A stretch of 64,000 nucleotides of DNA from Candidatus Cloacimonadales bacterium (GCA_963678315.1 OY782781.1:704001-768000); one strand, 5' to 3'; positions 39,357-62,296 are shown, counted from the stretch's first letter. Notes: a model not told the origin generated them from the letters alone. Numbers and translations: made by a program.

Positions 39357-39592
39357 AGAATTTAGTCAGTGTCATTAATTTATTTTATGGTTAAACCTTT
39401 AATAAAAAAAATCAGTTAAGATACAAAATAGTAATATTGAGTTAACTTATAATAGGTGTGAAAATTAGATAATCGAATTGTTAAGATGATTTACATTAAG
39501 ATTTAGCTAAGACGAAAAATGGCTTGACCAGATATTAGTCATAATTGTTAATTGATACTTGGAAATGATAAGTATATTTTACGAGGAAGTAT

Positions 39593-40659: not shown

Positions 40660-41863
40660 ATAGAACAGAGATAACACTGATTATACTGATAAAGATGATA
40701 GTATAAATTGAAAAGTTAAAGATGGGTGAAAGCCTTTTCTGTAGATACACACGGTCGTGTGTATAATGAAGTACATGTAAATGTACGAATAATTAAAAAT
40801 ATAACTGGGAACGCTGGCTGCTAGCCGGCTCTTAAGTCAGGCGAAGACTGATCTAGCCGGCTAAAGAATAAATATATAGTGTGAAAAATGGTGCTTCAGA
40901 AAGCCTTTCTGTAAGTCATAGGGCGAAGCATGCTTAAAAATAGATGTTTTGATAGAACACTGATGACACAGATTGAGCAGATGAAGATGGTTAAGTTTTA
41001 AGTTTTTTGAAGGTCATTCTAAGTAGGGTAAACTGGAAGAATCAAACCAGAAAAATAGAACACAGACAACACTGGATTATACTGATAATGATTTTACTTG
41101 AAGAAGAATTAATTTAATGATAGAAAGTTTTTTTTAGAAGATATACCAAGTAGAATTAATAATTATGTTTTATCAGTGGTTTTCAGTCTAATCTGTGTCA
41201 TCAGCGTTCTATATATATTTAGTAGGGAGGGTAAATGAGTGATTATCTTCATTCTGAATTAACAGATAAAATAATCAATGCATTTTATGAAGTATATAAT
41301 ACTTTAGGTTATGGTTTTCTTGAAAAGGTTTATGAAAAAGCTATGATAAATGAATTAAAATCTAAAGGATTAACTTGTTCTGAACAATATAAAATCGATG
41401 TATTCTATAAAAATAAACCTATTGGTGAATATTATGCTGATATTGTTGTTAATGATTTAGTTATATTAGAATTGAAAGCAAATGATTCTTTAGTTAAAGA
41501 GAATGAATATCAATTGATAAATTATCTTAAAGCCACAAATTTTGAGATTGGTTTGTTGTTTAATTTTGGTAAGAAACCAGAAATAAGAAGAAAAATTTTC
41601 ACAAACAATCGAAAATAGAAAGATAGAACACAGAAAACACTGATTATACAGATAAAGATGATTAAAAATATTAACTATGGACCTAAAGCAAAAGAATATT
41701 GGGAGAAATCAGATTTTCTCTGTTTAATCTGTGTCATCAGTGTTCCATATGCAGACAACACTGATCAGGCAGATAATAAGGGTTTTAATTAATCATATAT
41801 TTAAAAAAAGCTATTTAAAGAAAGCGGTGATTTTCAGTTTAATCTGTGTCATCTGTGTTCTAT
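40660..41863. mobile_element. GxxExxY element 1: array of ATAGAACAC-type direct and inverted arms around a GxxExxY gene
   Basis: Forward arms at 40660, 40952, 41055, 41623 and 41752; reverse arms at 41181-41212, 41718-41749 and 41831-41863. Mobility is inferred. Confidence 0.55.
41235..41618 (+). CDS. GxxExxY protein (PD-(D/E)XK-like)
   Basis: LGYGFLEKVY, YYADIVV..ILELKA, QLINYL and GLLFNFG motifs; GGGAGG RBS. Confidence 0.93.
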   Translation: MSDYLHSELTDKIINAFYEVYNTLGYGFLEKVYEKAMINELKSKGLTCSEQYKIDVFYKNKPIGEYYADIVVNDLVILELKANDSLVKENEYQLINYLKATNFEIGLLFNFGKKPEIRRKIFTNNRK

Positions 41864-41890
41864 ATAGAGTTTTATAAAGAAGGAGAAAAA

Positions 41891-43309
41891 ATGCAAACTG
41901 TTGTAATTCAAGGATTAGGATTTGTTGGTTTAGCGATGGCTACTGTTGTAGCAAACGTTGTGGATAAACAAGGTAAACCTTTATATAATGTGGTTGGTGT
42001 TGATTTACCAATGAATCAAGATAGAATTGATCTCATTAATAAAGGAATCTTGCCTTTTAAGAATGAAGATGAAACTTTTCCTGTTCAACTTGAAAAAGCA
42101 GTTCACCAATATAAAAACCTTCTAGCATCTACTGATGAAGAATGGTATAAAAAAGCTGATATAGTAGTTGTTGATATACAATTAGATATTAAAAAGCGTG
42201 AAGTTGGTAATGCTAGAGATTGTTATCTTGAAAAAGATGCTTTTATTGCAGCAATTCATACTCTAGGTAGACATATCAAGCCTGAATGTCTTGTTTTAGT
42301 TGAAACTACAGTCGCTCCTGGTTTTAGTCAGCATGTGGTTAAGCCTGCCTTAGATAAAGAATTTATGGAAAGAGGAATTGATGTAGTTACAAATCCTCCA
42401 AGAATTGCTCACTCTTATGAACGTGTGATGCCAGGAAAAGAATATCTCGCTTCAATCAGATCTTACCCAAGAACTTTCTCCGGTTATGACAAACTTTCAG
42501 CTGGAATGGCTCGTGAGTTCTTAGAAAATGTCTTAGAAGTAGATAAATACCCATTAAGAGAAGAAAATAATACAGAAACTTCTGAACTTGCTAAAGTGAT
42601 GGAGAATTCTTATCGTGCTGTAAATATAGCACTGGTAAATGAATGGACTCTTCTTGCGGAAAAGATGGAAGTTAATATATTTGATGTAATTGAAGGAATT
42701 AAAGTTAGACCAACCCATAAAAATATCTTATACCCTGGTTTAGGTGTTGGTGGATATTGCTTAACAAAAGACACACTTTTAGCTTACTGGTCTGGACAAA
42801 ACTTCTACGATGAAAACCTAGATTTACCTATGACTATCAAAGGTATCAACATAAACGACACAATGCCATGGCATACTTATGATCTAATCAAAGCCAATCT
42901 TCACAAAGATAACTTCAAGACTATTTTACTTGGTGTTTCTTACCGCGAAGACGTAGGTGATACACGCTATGCTCCAGCTGAAAAGCTCTACAGAAAACTT
43001 GCAAACGATGGTTTATCTGTAGATGTTCATGACCCTTATGTAGATGAATGGCCAGAATTACCTCAAGCTAAGTTTATCGAATTAATAGAAAATTTACAAG
43101 ACTATGATTGCCTAGTCTTAGGTGTGAAACACAACTGCTACTTGAATTTATCAGCTCAAGATATCATCAATGCAACTAAGGAAGATACTTTAATTGTTGA
43201 TGCTAATAATATCCTAGATGATGAGAAAATCTTGGAAATCCTTAAGAGTGGAAGAGATGTGATAGGTGTTGGGAAAGGCCATATCGCTAGGATGAAGAGA
43301 GAGATTTAA
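41891..43309 (+). CDS. Nucleotide-sugar dehydrogenase (UDP-glucose/GDP-mannose dehydrogenase family)
   Basis: GLGFVG, ETTVAPG, ERVMPG, KVMENSYRAVNIA, GGYCL and LGVSYRE..D.R motifs. Start set at ATG 41891 after AGGAG. Confidence 0.9.
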   Translation: MQTVVIQGLGFVGLAMATVVANVVDKQGKPLYNVVGVDLPMNQDRIDLINKGILPFKNEDETFPVQLEKAVHQYKNLLASTDEEWYKKADIVVVDIQLDIKKREVGNARDCYLEKDAFIAAIHTLGRHIKPECLVLVETTVAPGFSQHVVKPALDKEFMERGIDVVTNPPRIAHSYERVMPGKEYLASIRSYPRTFSGYDKLSAGMAREFLENVLEVDKYPLREENNTETSELAKVMENSYRAVNIALVNEWTLLAEKMEVNIFDVIEGIKVRPTHKNILYPGLGVGGYCLTKDTLLAYWSGQNFYDENLDLPMTIKGININDTMPWHTYDLIKANLHKDNFKTILLGVSYREDVGDTRYAPAEKLYRKLANDGLSVDVHDPYVDEWPELPQAKFIELIENLQDYDCLVLGVKHNCYLNLSAQDIINATKEDTLIVDANNILDDEKILEILKSGRDVIGVGKGHIARMKREI

Positions 43310-43868
43310 CCACTAAGACACAAAGTCTCTAAGAATTTATCCACTAATACACACTAATTGACACTAATGAAGAAAGATCTAATATATAATTTTACCACAA
43401 AGACTCGAAGGCACTAAGTTAATTTATATTTATGAGAATTATAGATATTGATGAATTAAATATTTTAAGTAAGAAGGTTGTTGATGCAATATTTAAGGTT
43501 CATAGGGAACTAGGACCTGGATTACTTGAAAATATCTATGAAAAGTGTTTATGTATTGAGTTGGCTTCTAAAAATTTAAAATACAGTAATCAAGTTGCTC
43601 TACCAGTTTTTTATAAAGGCAAAGATATTGGTTTGGATTATAGACTTGATATCTTAGTTGAAGATTCAATTATTATTGAACTTAAATCTGTTGAGAAAAT
43701 GAATCCTGTTTATAAAGCTCAGTTGTTAACATATTTGAAACTATCTAACAATAAACTAGGTTTTTTGGTAAATTTTAATGTACCTTTAATAAAAGATGGT
43801 ATTAAAAGAATTATTAACTAACTTAGTGGCTTAGAGTCTTTGTGGTGAAAAATAATTTAGTGGTCAAT
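43308..43868. mobile_element. GxxExxY element 2 with 28-bp inverted repeats
   Basis: 43394-43421 and 43819-43846 are complementary at 26/28 positions; extra left arms at 43308 and 43338. Confidence 0.6.
43432..43821 (+). CDS. GxxExxY protein
   Basis: LGPGLLENIY, YRLDILVED..IELKS, AQLLTYL and GIKRIIN motifs. Confidence 0.93.
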   Translation: MRIIDIDELNILSKKVVDAIFKVHRELGPGLLENIYEKCLCIELASKNLKYSNQVALPVFYKGKDIGLDYRLDILVEDSIIIELKSVEKMNPVYKAQLLTYLKLSNNKLGFLVNFNVPLIKDGIKRIIN

Positions 43869-43886
43869 CTTTAAAAAGGAGTAAGT

Positions 43887-45323
43887 ATGAAGAATGTTCT
43901 CTTAACAATTCTGGTAATTTTAACCCTACTATTACTATCTTGTGATAGCGATTCTACCTCATCTTCAGAGAAATATACTCTATCAGGGAATGTTAAACTT
44001 CTAGATTTAGATGGAAATGAAGTTTTAGAGGGATTATCGAATGTTTCAATTATGATTTATGATTTAGTTGAGATAGATTCTGGTTTACTTCAAGTTAAAG
44101 CAGACTACCCATTTATTGGTTCAGATGTTAATCAAGAAGTTTTCTTTGACATAAGAGATAAAAGTCCAATTAAAGAAATTAATTGTGACGACAATGGTAA
44201 TTTTACTTCCAAAATAGCTAAAGGCACATATAATATTGTTGTCTATTCAGAAGATTATGGCTACAAAATGTTCTATGATTATAACTTAGATAGTGATAGC
44301 TCAATAAATGATATTAATCTGTATGAAATACAAGAGTTAAGTGGAGCAGTTTCTAATTTTACCTTCCAAGCAGATCATGTTTATCATATTACCGATGATT
44401 TAGTGATACAAGAAAACAGCAATGTTGTTTTACAGGCTGGAGCTTATATTGATGTTGCTGATAATTCTAAAATTTACGTTAATGACGACTTCAATATAAC
44501 TGAAAATAATGGTAAAAATGTTAATTTCAATAGCATTTATTACAAAAATCAAGAGAAAAACCTTTTTAGTGGGATTGAAATTATGTCAGGTGAAAATATT
44601 AATATCTATTCTTTGATTGTTAAAAATGCAAGCAATGCTTTACTTTTTTCTAACCAACTAGCAATAACACAAGTAACTAATTCATCTTTTATCAACAATA
44701 ATCGTGGGATTATTACTCAGAATATCATTTCTGTTAATATTTCTGAATGTAATATTTTTAATAATACAAGTATTGGTTGTGAAATTGATTCTCAAAACTC
44801 CTTAAATAATAATATTGTTTATAATAATAATGAAGGTGTTAGGGTTGTTGAAGCAATATCTGATTTATCTAACTCTTATTATCTTGATAATTGGATGGGA
44901 ATTAGGTGCGCATTTTATGAAGAGGTGAATATACATAATAATGAGTTTGATAAGAATGAATTTGGAATATCAATGAGTGGTTCAAACCCAGCAATAAATT
45001 TTAATAACTTTAAGGATGATTTTATAAATATTGAATTATGTGCCCGTTATACTCAAGCTTCATATGATTATTGCTTACCAAATATTGAAAACAATAATAT
45101 TCTTTCAGTATCATGGCAAATTGGGATAAAAGGATTCAACGATTTATTTGCACAAAACAATCAAGCTTGGGCTGTCAATACAGATTTTTACTGTGGAAAA
45201 AATTTTTTTGGAAAAACTAAGAATTTTCTGGATAATAAAATATATATGTTCAATGAAGGTTTTTATGTAGTTATTGATAATGAATTCGACACATTTTTAA
45301 ACACATGCGGAATTTTTAAATAG
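43887..45323 (+). CDS. Lipoprotein with right-handed parallel beta-helix repeats
   Basis: Lipobox LLSC; Asn-rich repeats (NN.F.NN..GI). Confidence 0.65.
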   Translation: MKNVLLTILVILTLLLLSCDSDSTSSSEKYTLSGNVKLLDLDGNEVLEGLSNVSIMIYDLVEIDSGLLQVKADYPFIGSDVNQEVFFDIRDKSPIKEINCDDNGNFTSKIAKGTYNIVVYSEDYGYKMFYDYNLDSDSSINDINLYEIQELSGAVSNFTFQADHVYHITDDLVIQENSNVVLQAGAYIDVADNSKIYVNDDFNITENNGKNVNFNSIYYKNQEKNLFSGIEIMSGENINIYSLIVKNASNALLFSNQLAITQVTNSSFINNNRGIITQNIISVNISECNIFNNTSIGCEIDSQNSLNNNIVYNNNEGVRVVEAISDLSNSYYLDNWMGIRCAFYEEVNIHNNEFDKNEFGISMSGSNPAINFNNFKDDFINIELCARYTQASYDYCLPNIENNNILSVSWQIGIKGFNDLFAQNNQAWAVNTDFYCGKNFFGKTKNFLDNKIYMFNEGFYVVIDNEFDTFLNTCGIFK

Positions 45324-45332
45324 AAGGAAAAA

Positions 45333-45803
45333 ATGGATATCCAATATTATATATGTGAAAAGAATATTGATAAAAATGAACTAGAAGAATTCTTTTTTAG
45401 AATAAATTCTGAATTTACCCCTTATTTAGAAAAAAATTTAAATATATGTGAATATGCTGAAAAATTATCCAAAAATGCAATTATTTTTATAACTAAAGTT
45501 AATAATATAATTGTCGGTATGGCAGCTATATATTATAATACTGTCCCAGATTACTCTTTCGGAACATTTATGGGGGTCCTTAAAGAATATAGAAAATATG
45601 GAATAGCTCTTCAATTAGAAGAAAATTACATAGAATATTTTAAAAAATTAAATACACCTGGAATTAAATCTGTTGTAAACTGTAATAACAAAAACGCATT
45701 AAAACTACATAAATATTTTGGATTTGAGATTTTAAATAAATTTTATGATGAAATAATGAATATTGAAAAATATGAATTAATTTTGAAATTTAATAAAAAA
45801 TAA
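45333..45803 (+). CDS. GNAT N-acetyl/acyltransferase
   Basis: V.KEYRKYGIA and N..AL..H..FGF motifs. Confidence 0.8.
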   Translation: MDIQYYICEKNIDKNELEEFFFRINSEFTPYLEKNLNICEYAEKLSKNAIIFITKVNNIIVGMAAIYYNTVPDYSFGTFMGVLKEYRKYGIALQLEENYIEYFKKLNTPGIKSVVNCNNKNALKLHKYFGFEILNKFYDEIMNIEKYELILKFNKK

Positions 45804-45814
45804 GGAATTTATAT

Positions 45815-46030
45815 ATGAAAAAATTTGTTGAATTATTTAAAGAAGTTATGGAAATAGAAAATGTTGACGTTAATGGTAAAACAATATTCAGAGAATTAGA
45901 AGATTGGGATTCTTTAGCAGTTTTATCTGTCTTAGCAATGATAAATGATGAGTATGATATAACAATAGCAAGAGAAAAGTTTGAAAAAGCAAATACTCTT
46001 GAAGAGTTGTTTGCTCTTATTTCGGAGTAA
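45815..46030 (+). CDS. Acyl carrier protein
   Basis: Small acidic protein with a WDSL phosphopantetheine site. Confidence 0.9.
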   Translation: MKKFVELFKEVMEIENVDVNGKTIFRELEDWDSLAVLSVLAMINDEYDITIAREKFEKANTLEELFALISE

Positions 46031-46032
46031 AA

Positions 46033-47019
46033 GTGTTTGGATCTACTGTTGTAAAAATTGAATATTACTTGCCAGAAAAGATTTTAAGCAATGACAATTT
46101 GATGCAAGAGTTTCCTGAATGGGATGCTTCAAAAATTGAAAAGAAAGTTGGAATAAAAAATAGGCATGTGACTACAGCTAAAGAATCAGCTCTAGATATG
46201 GCAATTAAGGTTTCATCTAAGGTCCTTGAAAACTTTGATTCCAACAAAATTGATTTTATTCTTTTTTGCACTCAAAGTCCAGAATATTTTTTACCTTCTG
46301 GTGCATGCTTAATTCAAGATAAATTAGGTTTAAGAAAAAATATTGGTGCTTTAGATTTTAATTTAGGTTGTTCAGGCTTTGTATATGGTTTAACATTAGC
46401 TGACAGTTTGATTAAGTCAGGCGCAGCAAGTAATGTCTTACTAATTAACTCTGAGACTTATTCAAAACATATTCATCCTCAAGATAAGAGTAATCGTGCT
46501 ATTTTTGGAGATGGAGCAGCTGCAACTATTATTAGCACATCAAATATTCCCAAAATAGGAAAATTTGTTTTAGGAACTGATGGCTCTGGATTTAATAAAT
46601 TAATTGTGAGAGATGGAGCGTTTAGAGATGTTAACCATCAACGTGAATATGAAGTATCTAATTATAATGGTAAGTATATTTATATGAACGGTCCTGATAT
46701 ATTTAATTTTACAATGGATGTTGTTCCTAAAGTAGTTTCTGATTGCTTAGATAGTAATAACACAGAAATAGATAAAATTGACTTCTTTATATTCCATCAG
46801 GCTAATAAATACATTTTAGATTTTCTCAGAAAAAAAATAAAGATACCTAAAGAAAAATTCTATGTTAATATGGAAGAAACCGGAAATACTGTATCTGCAA
46901 CCATTCCTATTGCACTAAGGCAGTGCTTGGATAACAAATTAGTTAAGGCTGGAGACAAAGTAATGCTGGTTGGATTTGGTGTAGGATTGTCTTGGGCAAG
47001 CTGTATAATTGAGGTGTAA
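46033..47019 (+). CDS. FabH-like 3-oxoacyl-ACP synthase III
   Basis: LGCSGF, FGDGA, HQAN, GNT and GFGVG motifs. Confidence 0.92.
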   Translation: MFGSTVVKIEYYLPEKILSNDNLMQEFPEWDASKIEKKVGIKNRHVTTAKESALDMAIKVSSKVLENFDSNKIDFILFCTQSPEYFLPSGACLIQDKLGLRKNIGALDFNLGCSGFVYGLTLADSLIKSGAASNVLLINSETYSKHIHPQDKSNRAIFGDGAAATIISTSNIPKIGKFVLGTDGSGFNKLIVRDGAFRDVNHQREYEVSNYNGKYIYMNGPDIFNFTMDVVPKVVSDCLDSNNTEIDKIDFFIFHQANKYILDFLRKKIKIPKEKFYVNMEETGNTVSATIPIALRQCLDNKLVKAGDKVMLVGFGVGLSWASCIIEV

Positions 47020-48030
47020 ATGGCTCTAGTTAAATACAATAATGTTAAAATATCAGCAATCTCATGTTGTGTTCCTAAAAATAAACTTGATAACTTAAAT
47101 TTGGAAGAATATGGGTCAGTTGATGAGAGAAAGAAATATATTAATACAACCAATGTTAGGTTTAGAAGAATTGCAGATGAAAAGACTACATCTTCTGACT
47201 TATGTTATCAAGCAGCAAGTCAACTATTACAAGATAATGATATTGAACCAAATGATATCGATGTCTTAATTTTTGTAACACAAACTCCTGATTACTTTTT
47301 ACCTGCTACTTCCATAGTTTTACAGCATCAATTGGGATTGCCAATGTCTACGGTTGCTTTTGATGTTAATCTCGGATGTAGTGGTTATGTGAATGGATTG
47401 AATATTGCATTTTCTTTTTTACAGAATAATGCGTTTAAAAAAGTATTATTGTTGTGTGGTGACACTATCAGTAAAATTACTGACTTAACAGATAAAACAA
47501 CTGGTTATTTATTTGGGGATGCAGGTTCAGCAACTTTGATAGAAAGTTCTGAAAAAACTATGTCTGAGGTATATTTTTCTTTGAACAGTGATGGTTCAGA
47601 TAGTAGTTTACTGAAGACCGAGAATGGAGCGTTCCGAAATTTGGATAAAAAACCAAGTTTATATATGGATGGCATGGGGATTTTCAATTTTACGATTTCT
47701 AAAATCCCTAAAGATGTGAAAAAACTCTTTGATTTTTCAAATACTGAAATTGGTGCAATTGATTACGTATATTATCATCAAGCAAATAAGTTTATTAATG
47801 ATTTTATATCAAAAAAACTCAAATTGTCTTCTTCACAGACTCCCTTTTCAATGTATGAGTATGGTAACACTAGTTCAGCATCAATACCTTTAACCATATC
47901 AAATCATTTCACAAATAGAATTGATGAAAAGATAAAAGTAATTTTATCTGGATTTGGAGTTGGATTATCATGGGGACATTGTATATTGGATTTAGAAAAT
48001 GTAAATATTTCTAAAATAAAGGAGATATGA
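47020..48030 (+). CDS. FabH-like 3-oxoacyl-ACP synthase III (second copy)
   Basis: LGCSGY, FGDAG, HQAN, GNTSSAS and GFGVG motifs. Confidence 0.92.
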   Translation: MALVKYNNVKISAISCCVPKNKLDNLNLEEYGSVDERKKYINTTNVRFRRIADEKTTSSDLCYQAASQLLQDNDIEPNDIDVLIFVTQTPDYFLPATSIVLQHQLGLPMSTVAFDVNLGCSGYVNGLNIAFSFLQNNAFKKVLLLCGDTISKITDLTDKTTGYLFGDAGSATLIESSEKTMSEVYFSLNSDGSDSSLLKTENGAFRNLDKKPSLYMDGMGIFNFTISKIPKDVKKLFDFSNTEIGAIDYVYYHQANKFINDFISKKLKLSSSQTPFSMYEYGNTSSASIPLTISNHFTNRIDEKIKVILSGFGVGLSWGHCILDLENVNISKIKEI

Positions 48031-48791
48031 AAGTGATAGATCCATTTAGTTTAAAAGATAAACTTATATTGATAACAGGGGCATCTTCGGGTATTGGAAG
48101 ACAATGTGCAATCTCATGTTCTGAAATGGGTGCGAAATTAGTATTGGTTGCAAGAAATGAAAAGAAACTAAAAGAAGTTTTGTCTGAACTCTATGGTGAA
48201 GGTCACATCTATTTCTCTCAAGATATTACAGATTATTCAGAAATTAAGAAGATAGTTGAAAAAACTGTAGAAAAACTTGGTAAGTTGGACGGTTTTATTC
48301 ATTCTGCTGGTATTGAAATAACAAAACCATTAAAAGTAATGAAACCAGAAGATTATGAGATGATTTATTCAGTAAATGTAATATCAGGTTTTGAGTTTGC
48401 AAAACATGTCTCTAAGAAGAAAAACAGTAACGATTTGGCTAGCTTCATCTATATCTCTTCAGTAATGTCTGTAACGGGCAATTCAGGATTAACTGCCTAT
48501 TGTTCTTCAAAAGGAGCATTAGTTGCTGGGGTTAGGGCTTTAGCGATTGAGTATGCAAATAGAAAAATTAGATTCAATTGTATTTCTCCAGGTTATATTA
48601 AGACCGAAATGATGGATAATATAAAACAAAAGCTGAGTGGATCTGAGATAAATAAATTACAAGGGTACTTTCCTTTAGGTTTAGGCGATCCTAGGGATAT
48701 CGCTAACTCCTGTATATATCTTTTATCTGGTGCCTCAAAGTGGGTTACAGGCACCAATTTAATAGTAGATGGGGGTTATAGTGCAAAATAA
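48027..48791 (+). CDS. SDR oxidoreductase (FabG-like ketoreductase)
   Basis: TGASSGIG, YCSSK and VDGG motifs. Confidence 0.9.
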   Translation: MKVIDPFSLKDKLILITGASSGIGRQCAISCSEMGAKLVLVARNEKKLKEVLSELYGEGHIYFSQDITDYSEIKKIVEKTVEKLGKLDGFIHSAGIEITKPLKVMKPEDYEMIYSVNVISGFEFAKHVSKKKNSNDLASFIYISSVMSVTGNSGLTAYCSSKGALVAGVRALAIEYANRKIRFNCISPGYIKTEMMDNIKQKLSGSEINKLQGYFPLGLGDPRDIANSCIYLLSGASKWVTGTNLIVDGGYSAK

Positions 48792-48824
48792 GTTAATCAC
48801 TTTTTTTAAAATAAACGTGATAGA

Positions 48825-51198: not shown

Positions 51199-51201
51199 GT
51201 T

Positions 51202-54576: not shown

Positions 54577-54588
54577 GAGAGTAAAGCA

Positions 54589-55596
54589 ATGTTCAAAAAT
54601 AAAAAATTATTAATTACTGGGGGTACTGGTTCATTTGGAAACGCAGTACTAAGACGTTTTATCAACACAGATATTGAAGAGATTAGAATCTTCAGTAGAG
54701 ATGAGAAGAAGCAGGATGATTTAAGAAAGAAGCTTAATAATCCTAAAGTTAAATTTTACATTGGTGATGTTAGGGATTTAAGTTCTGTTAATACAGTTAT
54801 GAAAGATGTGGACTATGTTTTCCATGCTGCAGCTCTAAAGCAGGTTCCTTCTTGTGAATTTTTCCCTATTGAGGCAGTGAAAACCAATATTCTTGGTTCA
54901 AACAATGTAATGCAGTCTGCTATGATGCACGGAGTAAAGAAACTTATTGTACTTTCTACTGACAAAGCGGTTTATCCGATTAACGCTATGGGCATTTCCA
55001 AGGCTATGATGGAGTTGGTTATGGTGGCTAACTCTCGTAATGGTGGCGAAGAGACTACTCTCTGCGGAACTCGTTACGGAAACGTAATGGCTTCACGTGG
55101 TTCCGTTATTCCATTGTTCGTAGACCAAATCAAAGCAGGGAAGCCAATCACAATCACAGATCCAAACATGACTCGTTTCATGATGACTCTGGATGATGCT
55201 GTGGACTTAGTCTTATTTGCTTTCGAGCATGGTAAGCAAGGTGATAGATTTGTTCAAAAAGCTCCAGCTTGTACAATTGAAGTTCTTGCAAAAGCTTTAA
55301 AAGAATTGTATAAAGCAGATAATGAAATTAAGTTCATTGGTACACGTCATGGAGAAAAGCTCTATGAATCTCTAGTAAACAGAGAAGAAATGCTTAAGGC
55401 AGAAGATATGGGAGACTATTATAGAATTCCAGCTGACACAAGAGATCTTAACTATAACAAATACTTCTCAGAAGGTGATTCTGGTATTGAAAAGATCACA
55501 GAATATACTTCTCATAATACCCACCGAATGGATGTGGAAGAGACTAAGAAGTTACTGCTTAAGTTAGAGTTTATAAGGGAAGACCTAAATCTTTAG
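54589..55596 (+). CDS. fnlA: UDP-GlcNAc 4,6-dehydratase/5-epimerase (FnlA/CapE/WbjB)
   Basis: TGGTGSFG, SRDEKKQ, HAAALKQVPSCE, STDKA..PINAMG.SK and RYGNVMASRGSV motifs. Confidence 0.92.
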   Translation: MFKNKKLLITGGTGSFGNAVLRRFINTDIEEIRIFSRDEKKQDDLRKKLNNPKVKFYIGDVRDLSSVNTVMKDVDYVFHAAALKQVPSCEFFPIEAVKTNILGSNNVMQSAMMHGVKKLIVLSTDKAVYPINAMGISKAMMELVMVANSRNGGEETTLCGTRYGNVMASRGSVIPLFVDQIKAGKPITITDPNMTRFMMTLDDAVDLVLFAFEHGKQGDRFVQKAPACTIEVLAKALKELYKADNEIKFIGTRHGEKLYESLVNREEMLKAEDMGDYYRIPADTRDLNYNKYFSEGDSGIEKITEYTSHNTHRMDVEETKKLLLKLEFIREDLNL

Positions 55597-56226
55597 CCAC
55601 AAATAGCACAGATAAGAAATAATTTTTATCCACTAATTACACAAATAACACGAATTAGAAGATAGTAAGATATTTTAGCCACGAATAACACAAATCTACA
55701 CAAATAAGAAAAATATATTATTATAATGCTAGATGTATATCATAAAGAGTTATGTTATAAAATTATAGGGTGTGCATTTGAAGTGTACAATACTCTTGGA
55801 CCAGGTTTTCTTGAAAAGGTCTACGAAAAAGCCCTATTGCATGAGTTTGCTATAAACAATCTAAATGCAGAATCACAAGTACCATTAAAGATTATATATA
55901 AAGATACAGTTGTTGGAGATTACTTTGCTGACATCATAGTTGATAACAAAGTAATACTAGAATTAAAGTCATGTACAACAATAAATAAATCTCATCAAGC
56001 TCAATTAATAAATTATCTTGTTGCTACGGGAATCAAGGTAGGGTATGTTTTGAACTTTGGTAATGATAATAAACTTGAAAATATAAGAATTGTTAAATAG
56101 TATTATTTGTGAAGATTTGTGCTATTCGTGGCAAAAAAGTCTTCTTTAAATTAGTGTAATTTGTGAAATTCGTGGATAGTTTTCTTTATTGTTTATCAGT
56201 GTTAATCTGTGCTATCCGTGGCTAAG
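55592..56226. mobile_element. GxxExxY element 3 with three nested inverted-repeat pairs
   Basis: 55593-55613/56205-56225 (19/21), 55627-55656/56149-56178 (26/30), 55678-55707/56103-56132 (28/30). Confidence 0.65.
55726..56100 (+). CDS. GxxExxY protein
   Basis: LGPGFLEKVY, YFADIIVD..ILELKS, AQLINYL and LNFG motifs. Confidence 0.93.
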   Translation: MLDVYHKELCYKIIGCAFEVYNTLGPGFLEKVYEKALLHEFAINNLNAESQVPLKIIYKDTVVGDYFADIIVDNKVILELKSCTTINKSHQAQLINYLVATGIKVGYVLNFGNDNKLENIRIVK

Positions 56227-56243
56227 AAAAAAAAGGATTTAAA

Positions 56244-57350
56244 ATGAAAATTGGCATAACAGGACAAGCTGGCTTTATCGGCTCTCACCTATACAACAAC
56301 TTAGGCTTGCATGAAGGTATTGAAAGAATCCCCTTTGAAGATGATTTCTTCAAATCTGAGGAATCATTAGATAATTTTGTTAAGCAGTGCGACGTTATTG
56401 TTCACTTAGCGGCTATGAACCGTCATAATGACCCTGAAGTAATTTATAATACAAATATAGAATTAGTAGAAAAGATAATTGCAAGTATCGATAGATGTGC
56501 AACCAATCCACATATTATAATGTCTTCTTCAACTCAAGAGACTCGTGATAATTTATATGGTAAGTCTAAGAAAGAAGGTAGAGAGAAGTTTGTAGCATTT
56601 GCTCAACAAGGAAAGTGTTATTTTACAGGCTTGGTGATTCCTAATGTTTACGGTCCTTTCGGAAGGCCTTACTATAATTCAGTAACATCAACATTTTCTC
56701 ATTTGATAGCTAATAATAAAGAAGTTGAAATTCAGATTGATGCAGAGCTTGAAATGATCTACGTTCAGGATCTGTGCCAAGAAATTATTTCTGTAATTAA
56801 AAATAAAGAATACACTGATGAAAAGCTTCTGCCTTATACAGGCAAATCACTAGTTTCAGATCTAAGAGATAAGATAAAAGCTTTCCATGAAACCTATATT
56901 TCTGGCATAATCCCAAAATTTGAAAACAGATTTGATTTAACACTTTTTAATACCTATAGATGTTACCTTCCACAGGAATATTTTCCTGTAGATTATACTA
57001 AGCATTCTGATAATCGTGGCTCTTTCGTGGAAATTATTAAGAGTTCAGGGCAAGGACAATTCTCCTTCTCAACGACCAAACCTGGAATAACCAGAGGGAA
57101 TCATTATCATACTAGAAAAGTGGAAAGGTTTGCAGTTATTTCTGGAAAAGCTTCTATCAAGCTTAGAAAAATTGGAACAGACCAGGTTATAGAATATATT
57201 CTTGATGGAGAAAAACCAGGCTATGTAGATATGCCTATTTGGTATACTCACAACATCACTAACATTGGTGATGAAGAACTTATAACACTCTTCTGGATTA
57301 ATGAGTTCTATAATCAAGAAGATCCTGATACTTTCTACGAAGAAGTTTAG
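56244..57350 (+). CDS. fnlB: UDP-2-acetamido-2,6-dideoxy-hexulose reductase/epimerase (FnlB/CapF/WbjC)
   Basis: TGQAGFIG, HLAAMNR and YGKSK motifs; C-terminal cupin (DNRGSF, RGNHYH, THNI). Confidence 0.9.
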   Translation: MKIGITGQAGFIGSHLYNNLGLHEGIERIPFEDDFFKSEESLDNFVKQCDVIVHLAAMNRHNDPEVIYNTNIELVEKIIASIDRCATNPHIIMSSSTQETRDNLYGKSKKEGREKFVAFAQQGKCYFTGLVIPNVYGPFGRPYYNSVTSTFSHLIANNKEVEIQIDAELEMIYVQDLCQEIISVIKNKEYTDEKLLPYTGKSLVSDLRDKIKAFHETYISGIIPKFENRFDLTLFNTYRCYLPQEYFPVDYTKHSDNRGSFVEIIKSSGQGQFSFSTTKPGITRGNHYHTRKVERFAVISGKASIKLRKIGTDQVIEYILDGEKPGYVDMPIWYTHNITNIGDEELITLFWINEFYNQEDPDTFYEEV

Positions 57351-57363
57351 TGTCATACTTTAG

Positions 57364-57413
57364 CCTTAAGGGTCTCCTTGAAAAAAAGGCGTTTTTTCAA
57401 AGAGGCAAGTAAG
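57364..57413. repeat. About 50-bp mini inverted-repeat element (4 copies in window)
   Basis: CCTTAAGGGTCTCCTTGAAAAA..TTTTTCAAAGAGGCAAGTAAG; also at 12315, 18998 and 32196. Confidence 0.85.
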
Positions 57414-57436
57414 GGCCTAGTAATAAAGATTAAAAC

Positions 57437-57694
57437 TAGCCACAGATAACAAAGATAAAAAAAGAAGAAAATATTTTAGCCACAGATAACACGGATTTGC
57501 ACTGATAAAATGCTTAATAAACATCATAGCTTGTTTCATGTTATTTATAGTTAATTTACGAGTATTTTTTTACAGAAAGTTATGTTGGTATTAATTTACT
57601 ATCCATATTTGTCTTTATCTGTGTTTATCAGTGTTATCCGTGGCTAAAAGATGGATTGTCTTATTTGTGAAGATTTGTGCTATTTGTGGCTAAA
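57437..57694. repeat. Gene-less copy of the GxxExxY-type nested hairpin
   Basis: 57474-57509/57614-57649 complementary at 30/36; outer arms at 57437 and 57661-57694; about 100-nt AT-rich loop. Confidence 0.8.
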
Positions 57695-57707
57695 TAAAGG
57701 AATTATT

Positions 57708-58826
57708 ATGAATAAAATAAAAGTTATAACAATTGTCGGAACCCGTCCTGAGATCATCAGACTTTCCGAAGTAATGAAATTATTAGATAAACACACGAAT
57801 CACGTGACTGTTCATACAGGACAAAACTATGATTTCGAACTGAACGAGATCTTTTATCGCGATTTAGAATTAAGAAAACCAGACTATTATCTTGGAATCA
57901 ATACTTCTTCTTTAGGTCATGTTTTAGGTGAAACCCTTATTAAAGTGGAAGAAGTTTTTAATAAAGAAAAACCTGATGCTGTCTTAATTTTAGGTGATAC
58001 TAATGCATCTATAGCTGGAATTATTGCTAAAAGAATGAAGATACCAGTATTCCACATGGAAGCAGGTAACCGTTCTTTTGATTTCAATGTTCCTGAAGAG
58101 ATAAACAGACGTATCATCGACCATGTTGCGGATTTCAACTTAGTTTATACTGAAAATTCACGAAGACACCTTCTCTCTGAAGGACTTCCTCATAGACATA
58201 TCTATGTGACTGGTTCTCCAATGTTTGAAGTTTTAAATAAGAATATTGAGAAAATTAAGAATTCTGATATTTTAAAGAAATTAGAACTCAAGGAAAAAGA
58301 GTATTTTATAGTTTCAACCCACAGAGAAGAAAATGTAGATAATGAGGAAAATCTAAAAGAGATTGTAAATACTTTAAACGCTCTTACTGTAAATTATGAC
58401 CTTCCGGTTATTGTTTCTACTCACCCAAGAACTAGAAAGCGATTAGAGATGCTCAAAGATATTTCTATAGATAGTAGAATTCAATTCCTTAAACCATTTG
58501 GTTTCTTCGACTATAATAAATTACAAATGTCTTCTATCTGTGCAATCTCCGATAGCGGAACCATAAGTGAAGAATCATCAATGCTTAAGTTTCCTGCCGT
58601 GACTATCAGAAACTCACTAGAAAGACCAGAAGCTATGGACTATGGCTCAATTATCTTGACAGGTTTGAAAGCTGATGTAGTTCTTAACTCAGTAAAACTT
58701 GTACTTGAGGAACCAATGAACTTTAATAAATGTCCAGAATATCAAACAGATAATACATCATACCGTGTCCTCAAGATAATCATGGGACTAAGCGGATTGA
58801 AGAATAGATGGATGGGGATTAAGTGA
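57708..58826 (+). CDS. fnlC: Non-hydrolysing UDP-sugar 2-epimerase (FnlC/CapG/WbjD)
   Basis: GTRPEIIRL, HTGQNYD, GDTN, HMEAGNR..D..VPEE.NR, HREEN and SDSGT..EE motifs; start ATG 57708. Confidence 0.9.
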   Translation: MNKIKVITIVGTRPEIIRLSEVMKLLDKHTNHVTVHTGQNYDFELNEIFYRDLELRKPDYYLGINTSSLGHVLGETLIKVEEVFNKEKPDAVLILGDTNASIAGIIAKRMKIPVFHMEAGNRSFDFNVPEEINRRIIDHVADFNLVYTENSRRHLLSEGLPHRHIYVTGSPMFEVLNKNIEKIKNSDILKKLELKEKEYFIVSTHREENVDNEENLKEIVNTLNALTVNYDLPVIVSTHPRTRKRLEMLKDISIDSRIQFLKPFGFFDYNKLQMSSICAISDSGTISEESSMLKFPAVTIRNSLERPEAMDYGSIILTGLKADVVLNSVKLVLEEPMNFNKCPEYQTDNTSYRVLKIIMGLSGLKNRWMGIK

Positions 58827-59980
58827 AGAGAATTACAATTATTACAACTTGTTGCTTCCCTTATGGAGGACCAGCTGAAACATTAGTTCGAAATCTATCA
58901 ATTGGGATTTCTGCTAATGAATGTAATGTCAATGTAGTAAGATTTAGAGGAAAAAGATACACAAAAAAAAATGATGTTGATATAGAAGATAGTAATTATC
59001 TATTTAACAAACCTTTTGATAGTGAACTAGGTAAAATTTTAGAATTAATGCTAAATATACTATACATTCCGATATTTTTGCTTTATCTTAAATTTTTTAA
59101 GAATAAACAAGCAATTATTTTGTATGGTTTTGAGTATACTTATCAAATAATTCCTTTCATAATGTTCTCGAAAATACTGAAGATAAAATGTATTAGGTTT
59201 ATAACTGATCATTATAGAACAACATCTATAGTACCTGTTTGGTGGAAATATCCTAAGTTTATTTCATATATGATTCAAAAAAAATATGTTGACAAATTTC
59301 TTGATGGTGTTGTTGTTTTAAGCTCTTTGCTTTATAAACAATGTCAGGCGAGAGGAGTAAAAAAGGGAAAAATTATTTTGATTCCACATTTCATTGAGAT
59401 TCTAAAGCATACTGTAAAAAGGAAAACATACAATAATAACGTTAATGTTTGTTTTTGCGGAACAGTTGTTGAAGCTAATGGGATTAGTGATTTAATAGAG
59501 GCAATGAACATTGTTCAAAAGAAGTATCAAAATGTTACACTTAAGATAATTGGTAGAGTTGATAAGCAGTATAAAAATAAGTTAGTAACTTTATCAAAAA
59601 AAGAAATACATTTTACTGGGTATTTACACAAAAAAGAAGTAGAAGAAGAACTTGAGAATAGTGATATTTTAATTAACCCTAGAAAATATAGTTTAGCTGC
59701 TGAAGCAGGATTTCCAACAAAATTGGGTGAATATTTTTCATCAAAGAAAGCAGTAGTATCTACAAAACTTGGAGACTTAAAAGACTATTTTATTGATGGT
59801 AAAGAGCTGGTATTTGCTGAACCTGATAAGCCTGTTTCATTAGCTGAAGGTATTATGAAATTGATAGAAGATGAAAATTTAAGAACATATATTGGTCAAA
59901 ATGGTTATAATTGGGCAATAAAAAATCTAAATAACATAACTAATTCAAAGAAATTATTAGACTTTATTGACAAATTGTAA
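58823..59980 (+). CDS. Glycosyltransferase family 4
   Basis: GFPTKLGEY..S.K.VV motif. Confidence 0.85.
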   Translation: MKRITIITTCCFPYGGPAETLVRNLSIGISANECNVNVVRFRGKRYTKKNDVDIEDSNYLFNKPFDSELGKILELMLNILYIPIFLLYLKFFKNKQAIILYGFEYTYQIIPFIMFSKILKIKCIRFITDHYRTTSIVPVWWKYPKFISYMIQKKYVDKFLDGVVVLSSLLYKQCQARGVKKGKIILIPHFIEILKHTVKRKTYNNNVNVCFCGTVVEANGISDLIEAMNIVQKKYQNVTLKIIGRVDKQYKNKLVTLSKKEIHFTGYLHKKEVEEELENSDILINPRKYSLAAEAGFPTKLGEYFSSKKAVVSTKLGDLKDYFIDGKELVFAEPDKPVSLAEGIMKLIEDENLRTYIGQNGYNWAIKNLNNITNSKKLLDFIDKL

Positions 59981-59990
59981 AGGAGCAGAA

Positions 59991-60689
59991 ATGAAAGCAG
60001 TAATTCTTGCGGGAGGTCTTGGAACTAGATTAAGACCATTTACAGAAGTAATACCAAAACCACTGTTACCTATTGGGGAGAAATCAGTATTAGAAATTCA
60101 AATAGATGCATTAAAAAAACATGGATTTGATGAAATATATTTAGCGACAAACTATAAATCAGAATATATAGAGAACTTTTTTGGTGATGGTACTAATTTT
60201 GGAGTTAAATTGACTATTAGCAAAGAAACGAAAAAATTAGGAACAGTAGGACCTTTAACTCTCCTAAAAGATGTACTTACAGAACCATTTTTAATGATGA
60301 ATGGAGATATATTAACGCAGCTTGACTATAAAAAGATGTATGACTTTGCAATGTCAAAAAATACAGACCTAACTGTTGGGATTAAAGAGATTGTTACCCC
60401 ATTTCAATATGGTAATATTTTTTATGAAGGTGACTATGTTACAGGTATTCAAGAGAAGCCTAAGATAAAGACAAAAATTTTAGCTGGTATATATATTTTT
60501 AAGCCAGAAATTTTTATAAGAATTCCAGAAGATACTTATTTTGGAATGGATAATTTAATTGAATCTATGTTAGATTCTAAAGAAAATATTGCCAAATACG
60601 AGATTAATGAATATTGGTTAGATATTGGTCAAGTAGCTGATTATAAAAAAGCTCAAGAAGTTTATAAAACTCATTTTGTCAAGGAATAG
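59991..60689 (+). CDS. Sugar-phosphate nucleotidyltransferase
   Basis: ILAGGLGTRLRP...PKPL, LGT.G, NGD and WLDIG motifs; start ATG 59991 after AGGAG. Confidence 0.9.
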   Translation: MKAVILAGGLGTRLRPFTEVIPKPLLPIGEKSVLEIQIDALKKHGFDEIYLATNYKSEYIENFFGDGTNFGVKLTISKETKKLGTVGPLTLLKDVLTEPFLMMNGDILTQLDYKKMYDFAMSKNTDLTVGIKEIVTPFQYGNIFYEGDYVTGIQEKPKIKTKILAGIYIFKPEIFIRIPEDTYFGMDNLIESMLDSKENIAKYEINEYWLDIGQVADYKKAQEVYKTHFVKE

Positions 60690-60691
60690 TA

Positions 60692-61678
60692 ATGAAAAAA
60701 GTATTAGTTACAGGAGCTGATGGTTTCATTGGCTCACATTTAGTTGAAAATTTAGTAGATCAGGGATATAATGTAAGAGCTTTTGTCTATTATAATTCTT
60801 TTAATAGATGGGGATGGCTTGATAACTTTTCGAAAGAAAAATTAAATAAAATAGAAATATTTTCTGGTGATATTAGAGATCCAAATGGGGTTAGGGTAGC
60901 AATGGAAGGCATTGATATTGTTTTTCATCTAGCAGCTTTGATTGCAATCCCATTTTCTTATCATTCTCCAGATTCTTATGTTGATACAAATGTAAAAGGA
61001 ACTTTAAATGTCTTACAAGCTGCTAGGCTTTTAGGAACCCCAAGAGTGTTGGTTACTTCTACATCTGAAGTTTATGGTACTGCTCAATTTGTACCTATAA
61101 CAGAAGAACACCCTTACCAAGGTCAATCACCATATTCTGCAAGTAAGATAGGTGCTGATAGAATGGCTGAATCGTTTTATAGATCATTTGATTTGCCTGT
61201 AACTATTGTCAGACCTTTTAACACTTTTGGGCCAAGACAATCAGCCAGAGCTGTTATTCCTACGATTATAACTCAACTATTAAGTGGTTTCCAAGAGATA
61301 AAGCTAGGAGATTTAACTCCTACCAGAGATTTTGTTTATGCTAAAGATACTGCTCAAGGTTTCATTGAAATATCTAAATGTGATAATACTATTGGTCAAG
61401 AAATTAATATAGCAACTCAATCTGAAATATCTATTGGGCAGTTAGCTCAAGAGATGATTAATCAGATTAACCCAAAAGCTAAAATTGTGTGCGACCAACA
61501 AAGAATTAGACCTGAGAAGAGTGAAGTTAATAGACTCTTTGGTTGCAATGAAAAGATAAAGAAACTCACAGATTGGACACCTAAATATACTTTAGCAGAA
61601 GGATTAAAGGAAACTATTGAATGGTTCTCAGACAAGAAGAACTTAGCTCAGTATAAACCAGGTATTTATAATCTTTAA
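60692..61678 (+). CDS. legB: NAD-dependent 4,6-dehydratase, LegB-like
   Basis: TGADGFIGSHL, YNSFN.WGWL, HLAALIAIPFSY, TSTSEVYG, YSASK and RPFNTFGPRQSARAVIP motifs. Confidence 0.8.
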   Translation: MKKVLVTGADGFIGSHLVENLVDQGYNVRAFVYYNSFNRWGWLDNFSKEKLNKIEIFSGDIRDPNGVRVAMEGIDIVFHLAALIAIPFSYHSPDSYVDTNVKGTLNVLQAARLLGTPRVLVTSTSEVYGTAQFVPITEEHPYQGQSPYSASKIGADRMAESFYRSFDLPVTIVRPFNTFGPRQSARAVIPTIITQLLSGFQEIKLGDLTPTRDFVYAKDTAQGFIEISKCDNTIGQEINIATQSEISIGQLAQEMINQINPKAKIVCDQQRIRPEKSEVNRLFGCNEKIKKLTDWTPKYTLAEGLKETIEWFSDKKNLAQYKPGIYNL

Positions 61679-61686
61679 GATTTTTT

Positions 61687-62278
61687 CACCACAAAGACAC
61701 AAAGAACACTAATAGTTGAAGTAACACAAAAAGAGATTAAACACGGAAGCACAAAAATTCACAAAAACACGATTTATAATAACGTAATGTATATCAAAAG
61801 AGATTGTTATGGAGTCTGTAGATAAACAAAAGATGGCACGTCTAAATAATCTAAGTAAGAAAATTGTAGATTGTTTGTATTGTGTGCATAGAGAACTAGG
61901 TCCAGGTCTGCTTGAAAGAGCCTACCATCTTAGTTTATGCCATGAGTTAGATTTACGGAATATAAAATATCAAAATGAAGTTTATGTTCCAATAAACTAT
62001 AAAGATATGAGAATTGAATCAGCATACAGATTAGATTTGTTAATTGAAGATGAGATAATTATTGAGCTGAAAGCTGTGAAAAAATTAAATCACTATTTGC
62101 ATCCCAATTATTGACATATTTGCGATTAAGTAATAAGAAATTAGGTTTGTTAGTAAATTTCAATGTTAGCAATATTGGCAAAGGTATTAAAAGAATTATT
62201 AATTGATAAAACTCTTACTAAATATGCAAGAGACTTTTTTGTGTCTTATAGTATTTTTTAGAGATTTTTTGTGTTTAA
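61687..62278. mobile_element. Degenerate GxxExxY element 4
   Basis: Left arms CACCACAAAGACACAAAGAACACTAA (61687-61712) and 61737-61767; only short complementary remnants on the right (62235-62247, 62265-62278). Confidence 0.45.
61809..62206 (+). pseudogene. Frameshifted GxxExxY gene
   Basis: LGPGLLERAY..YRLDLLIE..ELKAV in frame 0. The C-terminus ([37 protein letters not shown], stop 62204-62206) is in the -1 frame, with the shift at about 62076-62084. Confidence 0.85.
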
Positions 62279-62296
62279 ATAATTAAAGAAGGAAAT

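Follow-up and report, generated by a model that had tools for sequence, protein, structure and literature searches.

GxxExxY nuclease genes and their heptad arms in a Cloacimonadales polysaccharide operon look like an undescribed selfish DNA cassette recurring across phyla

The stretch of DNA considered here, called the window throughout, comprises 64,000 nucleotides (nt) of Candidatus Cloacimonadales bacterium (GCA_963678315.1 OY782781.1:704001-768000) and belongs to a genome (G000) of 2.99 Mb in one contig (C1). A polysaccharide operon on the plus strand occupies positions 39.6-64 kb of the window; its products are a dTDP-glucose dehydratase-like protein, a UDP-sugar dehydrogenase, KAS-III-like proteins, a flippase, glycosyltransferases, an FnlA/B/C-like trio, a nucleotidyltransferase and an aminotransferase. 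Between these genes, and on the same strand, lie four genes of the GxxExxY family (PF13366/TIGR04256) coding for PD-(D/E)XK proteins, each accompanied by arrays of short repeat units, termed arms below. An earlier note on this DNA had described the four genes as co-oriented with the operon, mutually divergent, separable into two pairs by their peptide motifs, and accompanied by arms that begin within about 10 nt of the upstream stop codon, all of which was borne out. The genome contains five copies:

41235-41618, plus strand: c1, clade I, 127 aa, TIGR04256 score 130.9 bits
43432-43821, plus strand: c2, clade II, 129 aa, TIGR04256 score 151.5 bits
55726-56100, plus strand: c3, clade I, 124 aa, TIGR04256 score 140.2 bits
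61809-62114 (open reading frame; whole remnant 61809-62205), plus strand: c4, clade II, TIGR04256 score 94.5 bits
C1:1942482-1942817, outside the window: c5, the only other copy in the genome

The TIGR04256 cut-off is 35 bits; Pfam PF13366, with a cut-off of 22 bits, scored the four window genes at 93-147 bits and was the only family to match the proteins c1-c4. Two deep clades are apparent, clade I consisting of c1, c3 and c5 (GFLE, QLINYL, NFG) and clade II of c2 and c4 (GPGLLE, YRLD, QLLTYL, GIKRIIN). The pair c1 and c3 shares the motifs GFLEKVY, Y(Y/F)ADI(V/I)V, QLINYL and NFG, the pair c2 and c4 the motifs GLLExxY, YRLD, QLLTYL and GIKRIIN. Protein identity is 49% between c1 and c3, 59-70% between c2 and c4, and 42-44% for the pairs c1-c2 and c2-c3. 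The c4 frame changes by one base near 62090, after the ExK motif, and the C-terminal part with GIKRIIN continues in another frame to about 62205, so that c4 is either a pseudogene or affected by a sequencing error.

In an alignment of 34 sequences, residues E33, D73, E83 and K85 (numbered as in c2) hardly vary, and each of the positions G28, G30, E33, Y36, D73, E83 and K85 is conserved throughout or in 90% or more of the sequences; no invariant cysteine was found in this alignment. As judged from these residues, the E...D...ExK active site of the encoded nuclease appears to be intact. Foldseek comparison of an AlphaFold2 (AF2) model (pLDDT 96.4) returned as nearest folds Cas4 SSO0001 (E = 5e-3, TM 0.51), lambda exonuclease and other PD-(D/E)XK nucleases, the class to which both Cas4 and lambda exonuclease belong. 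A search of the PDB by sequence revealed no solved relative, PHROGs gave no match, and PADLOC yielded weak Cas4 rows alone (E = 6e-4 to 3e-3). The function of PF13366 is recorded as unknown in a superfamily survey of 2012 (PMC3424549).

In an arm, a TTARC end leads into about three 7-nt units (heptads) in direct repeat, most of the form CACNRAN, at a spacing of 9-10 nt; measured from start to start in this genome, the distance between heptads is 9 nt in 156 cases, 10 nt in 98 and 8 nt in six. Arms are either inverted around the open reading frame (ORF) or form whole hairpins alongside it, and a complete element reads TTAGCCAC...GTGGCTAA, with TTARC...GYTAA as its conserved ends. At all four window copies the arm arrays start 0-10 nt past the upstream stop codon, which lies within the end TTAACCAC for the gene preceding c2 and within TTAGCCAC for the gene preceding c3. 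The following repeat features were located:

40660-41234, plus strand: composite repeat region upstream of c1, also containing unrelated repeat modules; forward arms at about 40660-40699, 40952-40991 and 41055-41092, reverse arm at about 41170-41214
41619-41890, plus strand: two hairpins 3' of c1; forward arm 41623-41662 with reverse arm about 41710-41750, and partial forward arm 41752-41791 with reverse arm about 41825-41865
43306-43431, plus strand: forward arms of c2 at 43310-43333 (CACTAAG, CACAAAG, CTCTAAG), 43341-43368 (three times CACTAAT) and 43395-43418 (CACAAAG...CACTAAG)
43822-43870, plus strand: reverse arms of c2 at 43822-43848 (CTTAGTG, CTTAGAG, CTTTGTG), and a partial one at 43857-43867
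55593-55725, plus strand: forward arms of c3, A 55593-55618, B 55627-55662 and C 55675-55707
56101-56228, plus strand: reverse arms of c3, C' 56103-56136, B' 56143-56178 and A' 56193-56225, with the end GTGGCTAA
57436-57695, plus strand: ORF-less hairpin, forward arm 57476-57509, reverse arm 57614-57647, loop of about 100 nt; beside it a partial forward arm (about 57438-57460) and a solo reverse arm (57662-57693)
61685-61808, plus strand: degenerate forward arms of c4 (twice CACAAAG, then CACTAAT, CACAAAA...)
62206-62285, plus strand: degenerate reverse arms of c4 (TTTTGTG units)
38790-39360, plus strand: two tandem gene-less composites upstream of the operon, each with one forward and three reverse heptad arms

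An inverted repeat of 42 nt (86% complementary) surrounds the c2 gene; its heptads are CACTAAG and CACAAAG, and there is one TATCCACTAAT module, the latter as the earlier note had it. Around c3 the arms form nested pairs in the order A-B-C-gene-C'-B'-A' (41 nt, 88%; 36 nt, 83%; 21 nt, 90%), with the heptads CACAAAT, CACAGAT, CACTAAT and CACGAAT. Separate upstream and downstream hairpins of the type ATAGAACACAGA-AACACTGAT-TATACAGAT accompany c1, complete hairpins likewise stand on either side of c5, and the arms of c4 are degenerate (CACAAAG, CACAAAA). As RNA, the c3 cassette is predicted to form a long interrupted stem around the ORF (z = -10.95), and a fold is also predicted for the c2 cassette (z = -3.06). 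Rfam searches gave no family at gathering score in the whole window and none at E <= 1 in positions 38000-64000; on three repeat-rich loci they produced sub-threshold microRNA and Acido-Lenti-1 rows only.

A strong Shine-Dalgarno sequence (GGAGG) precedes c1, and c5 likewise has a strong one, whereas c2 and c3 lack a clear Shine-Dalgarno sequence and their starts adjoin the predicted stem (start regions: c1, 41215-41234; c2, 43410-43431; c3, 55705-55725; c5, C1:1942445-1942467). The split follows the arrangement of the arms, the two genes with hairpins alongside having strong sequences and the two arm-enclosed genes none. Two listed start codons of neighbouring genes, a GTG at 41846 and an ATG at 57651, fall within arms; the true start of the dehydrogenase gene is likely the ATG at about 41891, behind AAGGAG, and that of the epimerase gene likely the ATG at about 57708. 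Coverage of the window DNA was obtained solely as short metagenome contigs from four sequencing runs. One contig of run X2 carries a joint 55677->56143, with a 30-nt side, that skips arm C, c3 and arm C'; it may stem from another organism or repeat and was not used as evidence.

Two collections were used for comparison, namely 41 related genomes (G001 onward) and a set of one genome per species. The latter was scanned with a clade-I pattern, because a two-clade alignment was too diverse for a collection scan, and clade II was sampled solely in the related genomes. Matches to PF13366 occurred in 26 of the 41 relatives, usually as several copies inside one stretch of about 40 kb; in three of these genomes the PF13366-rich stretch also contains fnl genes, and GxxExxY cassettes are concentrated in polysaccharide loci. 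Near-identical GxxExxY copies adjoin each other in one relative (G014) and lie 2.7 kb apart in another (G005). With a single degenerate peptide pattern, the clade-I scan yielded at least 597 relatives, the best 80 of which served for the cross-phylum locus tests. These 80 loci derive from more than 12 differently named groups, including Pseudomonadota, Planctomycetota, Anaerolineae, Dehalococcoidia, Blastocatellia, Bacteroidales, Cloacimonadota, Fusobacteria, Nitrospinota and Omnitrophota. Propionigenium maris DSM 9537 and Pelotalea chapellei DSM 13688 are among the cultured carriers that the scan revealed. A match was present in eight of 72,556 plasmid records, and no GxxExxY match was found among 50,697 phage records.

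Arms accompany the gene far beyond the window. Nearly all of the first 30 loci in related genomes have three-heptad arms, although the heptad varies by locus (CACAGAG, CACGAAA, CACCGAA, CGCAGAT, CACAGAT, CACTAAT and others), and at least one strict module lies within 250 nt of the gene at 52 of the best 80 cross-phylum loci, the AT-rich heptads being retained even at a genome GC content of 60-64%. When 150 nt upstream of each gene were aligned to the reverse complement of 150 nt downstream, an enclosing inverted repeat scored better than the best of 20 shuffles per locus at 83 of 129 loci, as compared to about six by chance. Chain detection and this alignment replaced a 7-mer neighbourhood count, which was too noisy relative to shuffles in AT-rich flanks. 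The letters T-T-A-R-C before the first heptad are conserved in 88 modules from unrelated genomes. A three-unit chain was placeable in 27 arms, drawn from 56 strong-repeat loci, and comparison of the two arms of each element showed mismatches in 31 of 581 heptad columns (5%) and in 39 of 129 spacer columns (30%; Fisher p = 5e-14); since the heptads vary far less than the spacers, it is the units themselves that are kept, and not continuous pairing. Within an element the six heptads vary jointly, and their type is stable within a protein clade in which the spacers have drifted. The heptads are of a clade-specific type and under far stronger constraint than the spacers, and gene and arms are inherited together and have been transferred together across phyla.

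The link between arm type and protein clade was quantified on a FastTree phylogeny of 135 GxxExxY proteins (129 alignment columns), each gene being assigned the heptad class that prevails in its flanking sequence. A label could be given to 95 genes, whereas 33 had no class and seven were mixed. The 95 labels required 31 changes on the tree, whereas 300 shuffles averaged 64.9 changes and never fell below 56; for the 59 labelled loci of the cross-phylum subset the figures were 18 changes observed, 37.4 on average when shuffled and 32 at the least. These figures depend on heuristic labels and on kin that are not independent of each other, and the wide sample represents clade I alone. Within well-supported clades a single arm type extends over several phyla, as for ACAGGAT (12 of 14 rows), CnCnGAC (9 of 12) and CACnGAG (6 of 6). 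Mantel tests of protein identity against arm 6-mer similarity agreed (r = 0.24, n = 56; r = 0.36, n = 37; both p <= 5e-4), with high arm similarity only above about 60% protein identity. The earlier note, arguing from four copies, had proposed that every protein clade is accompanied by arms of its own kind, and had named a random distribution of arm types over the protein tree as the result that would speak against it; no such distribution was seen, either on the full tree or in the unrelated genomes, and the proposal is supported by this larger sample.

ORF-less hairpins and solo arms are scattered in the intergenic DNA. Single heptads are not enriched genome-wide, but modules, defined as runs of at least three spaced heptads, number 126 in this genome and two in a shuffled copy, and 122 of the 126 lie outside long ORFs; a second search counted 123 modules and one for a reversed-pattern control. 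Across the 41 relatives, genomes with more PF13366 matches tend to have more modules (Spearman 0.56, p = 1.6e-4), the medians being 19.5 modules in genomes with and 2 in genomes without PF13366 (p = 0.0026); the module count does not correlate with matches to PF05635 (0.25, p = 0.11).

Repetitive extragenic palindromes (REPs) and REP-associated tyrosine transposases (RAYTs) are a second source of dispersed repeats here. In REP/RAYT (REPIN) systems, a gene is flanked by its own inverted short repeats, ORF-less copies are numerous, and the repeat type co-varies with the protein clade. The genome has nine RAYT-like Y1_Tnp genes (PF01797), each with its own type of REP palindrome, and six of them are clustered at 1.10-1.13 Mb:

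C1, outside the window: Y1_Tnp genes at 599462, 796211, 1104316, 1107183, 1110583, 1115151, 1121498, 1126000 and 1688425

Their flanks are free of CAC triple heptads, with the exception of one module about 220 nt downstream of one gene. Since the RAYT-like genes carry other repeats, the heptad arms represent a system apart from the REP/RAYT pairs, although the two kinds of repeat get mixed in mosaic spacers. An element of about 190 nt, present in 26 near-identical copies in C1 (e.g. 1215555-1215735, L184), combines three short palindromes with a CACGAAA-CACGAAT-CACGAAA module and ends in GGACTGGACA; as RNA its fold is predicted at z = -4.77, and no Rfam family matched at threshold. In the window, the ACTGGGAACGC...GCCGGC palindromes at 38757-38784, 39012-39039 and 40804-40829 are of the REP type that flanks the Y1_Tnp genes at 1110583 and 1115151. 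At 40890-40935 lies a conserved motif, about 46 nt long and composed of GGTGCTTCAGA, a variable hairpin and TCTGTAAGTCATAGGGCGAAGCATGC. It occurs once in this genome and in nine places in GxxExxY loci of relatives; its inner hairpin varies in sequence while pairing is kept, and it has no Rfam match. A stretch of about 52 nt after the fnlB-like gene (57363-57415) has about six times the surrounding depth in run X1 contigs and many loose ends on both sides, and is therefore taken to be a multi-copy repeat.

The fnl genes permit comparison of orthologous junctions. Between fnlA and fnlB, a spacer of 9-14 nt is all that is present in G007 and G023, and the frames overlap in G031; the same junction is filled by the c3 cassette in this genome, and G003 and G010 have ORF-less hairpins there whose arms are related. 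At the fnlB-fnlC junction this genome has an ORF-less hairpin; in G010 the site is occupied by a GxxExxY gene, in G003 by a broken one, and in G007 and G021 by genes of another family, PF05635. PF05635 (S23p) is the family of the ORF found in intervening sequences (IVS) of 23S rRNA. Inverted repeats enclose the PF05635 gene at 21 of 26 loci, the arms being contiguous 7-8-mers such as GAGTGAC, AGGTGCT, TTGATAA and GAGAGGTC; as these differ from the GxxExxY arms, arm style goes with the cargo family. The single PF05635 gene of the genome (C1:995100-995700) is enclosed by contiguous heptamers of the TTGATAA type, with a ACTGGGAACGC REP adjoining.

A search for literature on IVS and heptameric repeats produced one relevant match, a paper on the Coxiella IVS (PMC4990558), which describes a terminal stem of 28 bp that is cleaved by RNase III, an S23p ORF and, adjoining the ORF, the heptamer GACAGAT three times in tandem. 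ORF-bearing 23S IVS are presented there as scattered, horizontally transferred and selfish (PMC4990558). Each of the four 23S rRNA genes of the genome is interrupted by an insert near position 1196, in the region of helix 45. Two of the inserts are about 320 nt long, with an 85-aa GIY-YIG ORF (Pfam E = 9.4e-17) preceded by the ribosome-binding site AGGAG, and the other two are about 115 nt long and ORF-less; the GIY-YIG-bearing inserts lie outside the window, at C1:1142650-1142950 and in the twin 23S gene C1:2786550-2789737.

Taken together, the GxxExxY gene with its heptad arms looks like an undescribed selfish DNA cassette that recurs across phyla. Gene and arms very probably constitute one co-inherited mobile unit. 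Each GxxExxY gene would be the cargo of a small, horizontally mobile, selfish cassette bounded by inverted arms, and the PD-(D/E)XK nuclease would bind the heptad arrays of its own arms and cut at or near the conserved TTARC ends. Binding and cutting would drive spread or retention of the cassette, following the logic of a transposase with subterminal repeats or of a RAYT with its REPs. Insertion would take place in intergenic positions, usually with the cassette on the strand of the upstream gene, a neighbour co-oriented at 108 of 118 loci; once transcribed with the operon, the arms would pair to give a long stem enclosing the ORF, comparable to the ORF-bearing 23S IVS removed by RNase III, and removal of the stem at the RNA level may be the reason why the host operon tolerates the insert. 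The account as a whole, with a selfish mobile cassette and a nuclease that reads the arms, we consider on balance probable. That the nuclease reads its own heptads, which the earlier note thought probable and we regard as evenly poised, is suggested because the heptads are kept more strictly than the spacers, the six heptads change in concert and module counts track the presence of the gene. Additional processing at the RNA level is possible but somewhat doubtful. Still more tentatively, GxxExxY proteins might be the enzymes of an unrecognised cross-phylum class of mobile elements, in which a nuclease of about 125 aa would read the three heptads of either inverted arm and cut at a TTARC end common to all, with ORF-less hairpins and solo arms as its non-autonomous offspring. 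GxxExxY cassettes, PF05635 cassettes and ORF-bearing rRNA IVS would then form one "ORF-in-a-hairpin" superfamily, spreading at the DNA level and tolerated by the host because its arms are removed from transcripts.

An element acting solely at the RNA level would have arms that pair in the transcript and are cut by RNase III, so that the ORF is freed or silenced and the neighbouring cistrons stay intact, and its nuclease would have an unrelated function or no function at all and would not read the arms. The architecture indeed matches that of the ORF-bearing IVS described in the Coxiella paper (PMC4990558), the PF05635 genes occupy analogous cassettes, in two relatives at the very fnlB-fnlC junction used by GxxExxY genes, and the 23S genes of this genome all bear helix-45 IVS, two of them with an ORF. 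The strongly predicted stems of the c3 and c2 cassettes and the starts of these two genes beside the stem, without a Shine-Dalgarno sequence, point in the same direction, as does the co-orientation of the upstream neighbour at 108 of 118 loci (baseline in this genome 0.79; p = 2.4e-4). However, pairing alone fails to account for one heptad repeated three times per arm, for mismatches of 5% in heptads as against 30% in spacers, and for a TTARC end shared across phyla; many arms are solo or form same-side hairpins that do not enclose an ORF; and none of the loci examined (L001-L186) lies within a 23S gene. G:U-compatible mismatches, moreover, show no excess on the transcribed strand (47 on the coding and 47 on the opposite strand), and hence give no sign of a constraint acting on the transcript only. 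We regard an RNA-only element as unlikely.

Still less likely, in our view, is that the arms are a separate repeat system, a further class among the mosaic repeats that fill the spacers of these genomes, with the genes as passengers or frequent neighbours. Another enzyme, such as a RAYT, would have spread the arms, or the host would retain them because they stabilise mRNA or allow polysaccharide gene modules to recombine. The nine RAYT-like genes with their own REPs, the 190-nt element joining REPs with a CACGAAA module, the relatives rich in modules without a PF13366 match, the varied cargo (GxxExxY, PF05635 or none) at the same junction in different genomes and the accumulation of cassettes in polysaccharide loci would all fit such a system. 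The association of gene and arms nevertheless persists in unrelated phyla and GC backgrounds, where host repeats must differ, arm type follows the protein tree and not the host, and RAYT flanks are, with the one exception, devoid of CAC triple heptads; the contiguous arms of the PF05635 cassettes and the module counts, which track PF13366 and not PF05635, likewise tie the repeats to the cargo. Chance or low complexity in AT-rich spacers, which might be considered because single heptads are not over-represented and k-mer counts were noisy relative to shuffles, has a negligible probability: this origin was refuted by the shuffle and reversed-pattern controls on the modules, and the 83 loci that surpassed 20 shuffles and the z value of the c3 stem speak against it as well.

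Several observations weigh against the selfish cassette or parts of it. No clear arm type could be assigned to 40 of the 135 tree rows (33 none, seven mixed), and 46 of the 129 loci lack a significant enclosing repeat. Physical linkage alone yields some co-variation of gene and flanks, but a concerted, clade-stable heptad type despite drifted spacers goes beyond linkage. Comparison of empty and filled junctions, with the ends TTAGCCAC...GTGGCTAA, revealed no unambiguous target-site duplication. The five resident copies are 42-70% identical, several near-identical gene-bearing copies at unlinked sites were not encountered in this genome, and from the sequences there appears to be no sign of recent transposition of the gene-bearing form. 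Modules are present in genomes without a PF13366 match (75 in G017, 49 in G037, 24 in G022). With 52 of 126 modules, CACGAAA (AAA-type) is the commonest type in this genome, yet it stands beside none of the five resident genes. The 190-nt element accounts for 26 of the 52; its palindromes are the REPs of the RAYT gene at C1:1107183, and these copies may have been spread by that RAYT. The type that dominates among the dispersed modules listed for G021, CACnGAC, matches no arm type assigned to the genes of that genome. As to the RNA part of the account, the even G:U count given above is unfavourable, spacers are often unpaired, and the downstream neighbour is co-oriented at 91 of 113 loci, which is not above baseline.

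No description of the genomic context of GxxExxY (PDDEXK_3, PF13366, TIGR04256) genes was found in the searchable literature, a scope outside which subscription journals and database curators' notes fall. The family is very widespread, as the number of relatives retrieved by one degenerate pattern illustrates, and the clade-specific repeat architecture offers a concrete, testable candidate substrate for the nuclease. The heptad arms link the family to rRNA IVS and to biology of the REP/RAYT type, and the cassettes explain the GxxExxY genes and the odd long spacers that litter polysaccharide loci; spacers bearing arms also mislead gene callers, as seen for the two start codons at 41846 and 57651. 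Should the class of mobile elements outlined above prove real, it would provide a function for two very abundant families of unknown role, PF13366 and PF05635, and a possible source of the long-unexplained rRNA IVS.

Among known systems, Cas4 is the nearest fold to the GxxExxY model, but GxxExxY proteins lack its four conserved cysteines (Fe-S) and a cas neighbourhood, their neighbours being polysaccharide genes. Free-standing homing endonuclease genes of the phage T4 type resemble the cassettes in being small nuclease genes wedged between conserved operon genes; the insertion sites of the cassettes, however, are many and unrelated, and the arms have no counterpart in these genes or in Cas4. 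DNA transposons and miniature inverted-repeat transposable elements (MITEs) share with the cassettes conserved terminal letters, short motifs repeated inside the ends, ORF-less derivatives, and presence or absence at orthologous sites, whereas the cassette has no recognised transposase fold, no clear target-site duplication and, in this genome, no identical dispersed gene-bearing copies. The earlier note had likened the genes to RAYT transposases with their REPs. The logic of that comparison stands as an analogy: GxxExxY genes have their own inverted flanking repeats (83 of 129 loci), and arm type co-varies with clade. The scattered ORF-less modules fit it less clearly, being numerous but with a commonest type that matches no resident gene and rides in a REP-bearing element. 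The comparison does not extend to the protein, a PD-(D/E)XK nuclease instead of an HUH/Y1 (IS200-like) transposase, nor to the repeats, since the REPs of the RAYT-like genes differ, being single palindromes where the cassette arms have three direct heptads. The nearest known architecture is that of the ORF-bearing 23S rRNA IVS of, for example, Coxiella and Leptospira. Those reside in helix 25 or 45 of rRNA and the GxxExxY cassettes in mRNA operons; their cargo is a four-helix bundle and not a PD-(D/E)XK nuclease, and their heptamers are contiguous in tandem, unlike the three spaced CACNRAN units behind TTARC. Excision of the 23S IVS is due to RNase III, which may act likewise on the predicted stem of the cassettes. 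Both, however, consist of a small ORF within stem-forming terminal inverted repeats, both have heptameric repeats in the ORF-proximal arm, and both show the scattered distribution of horizontally transferred DNA.

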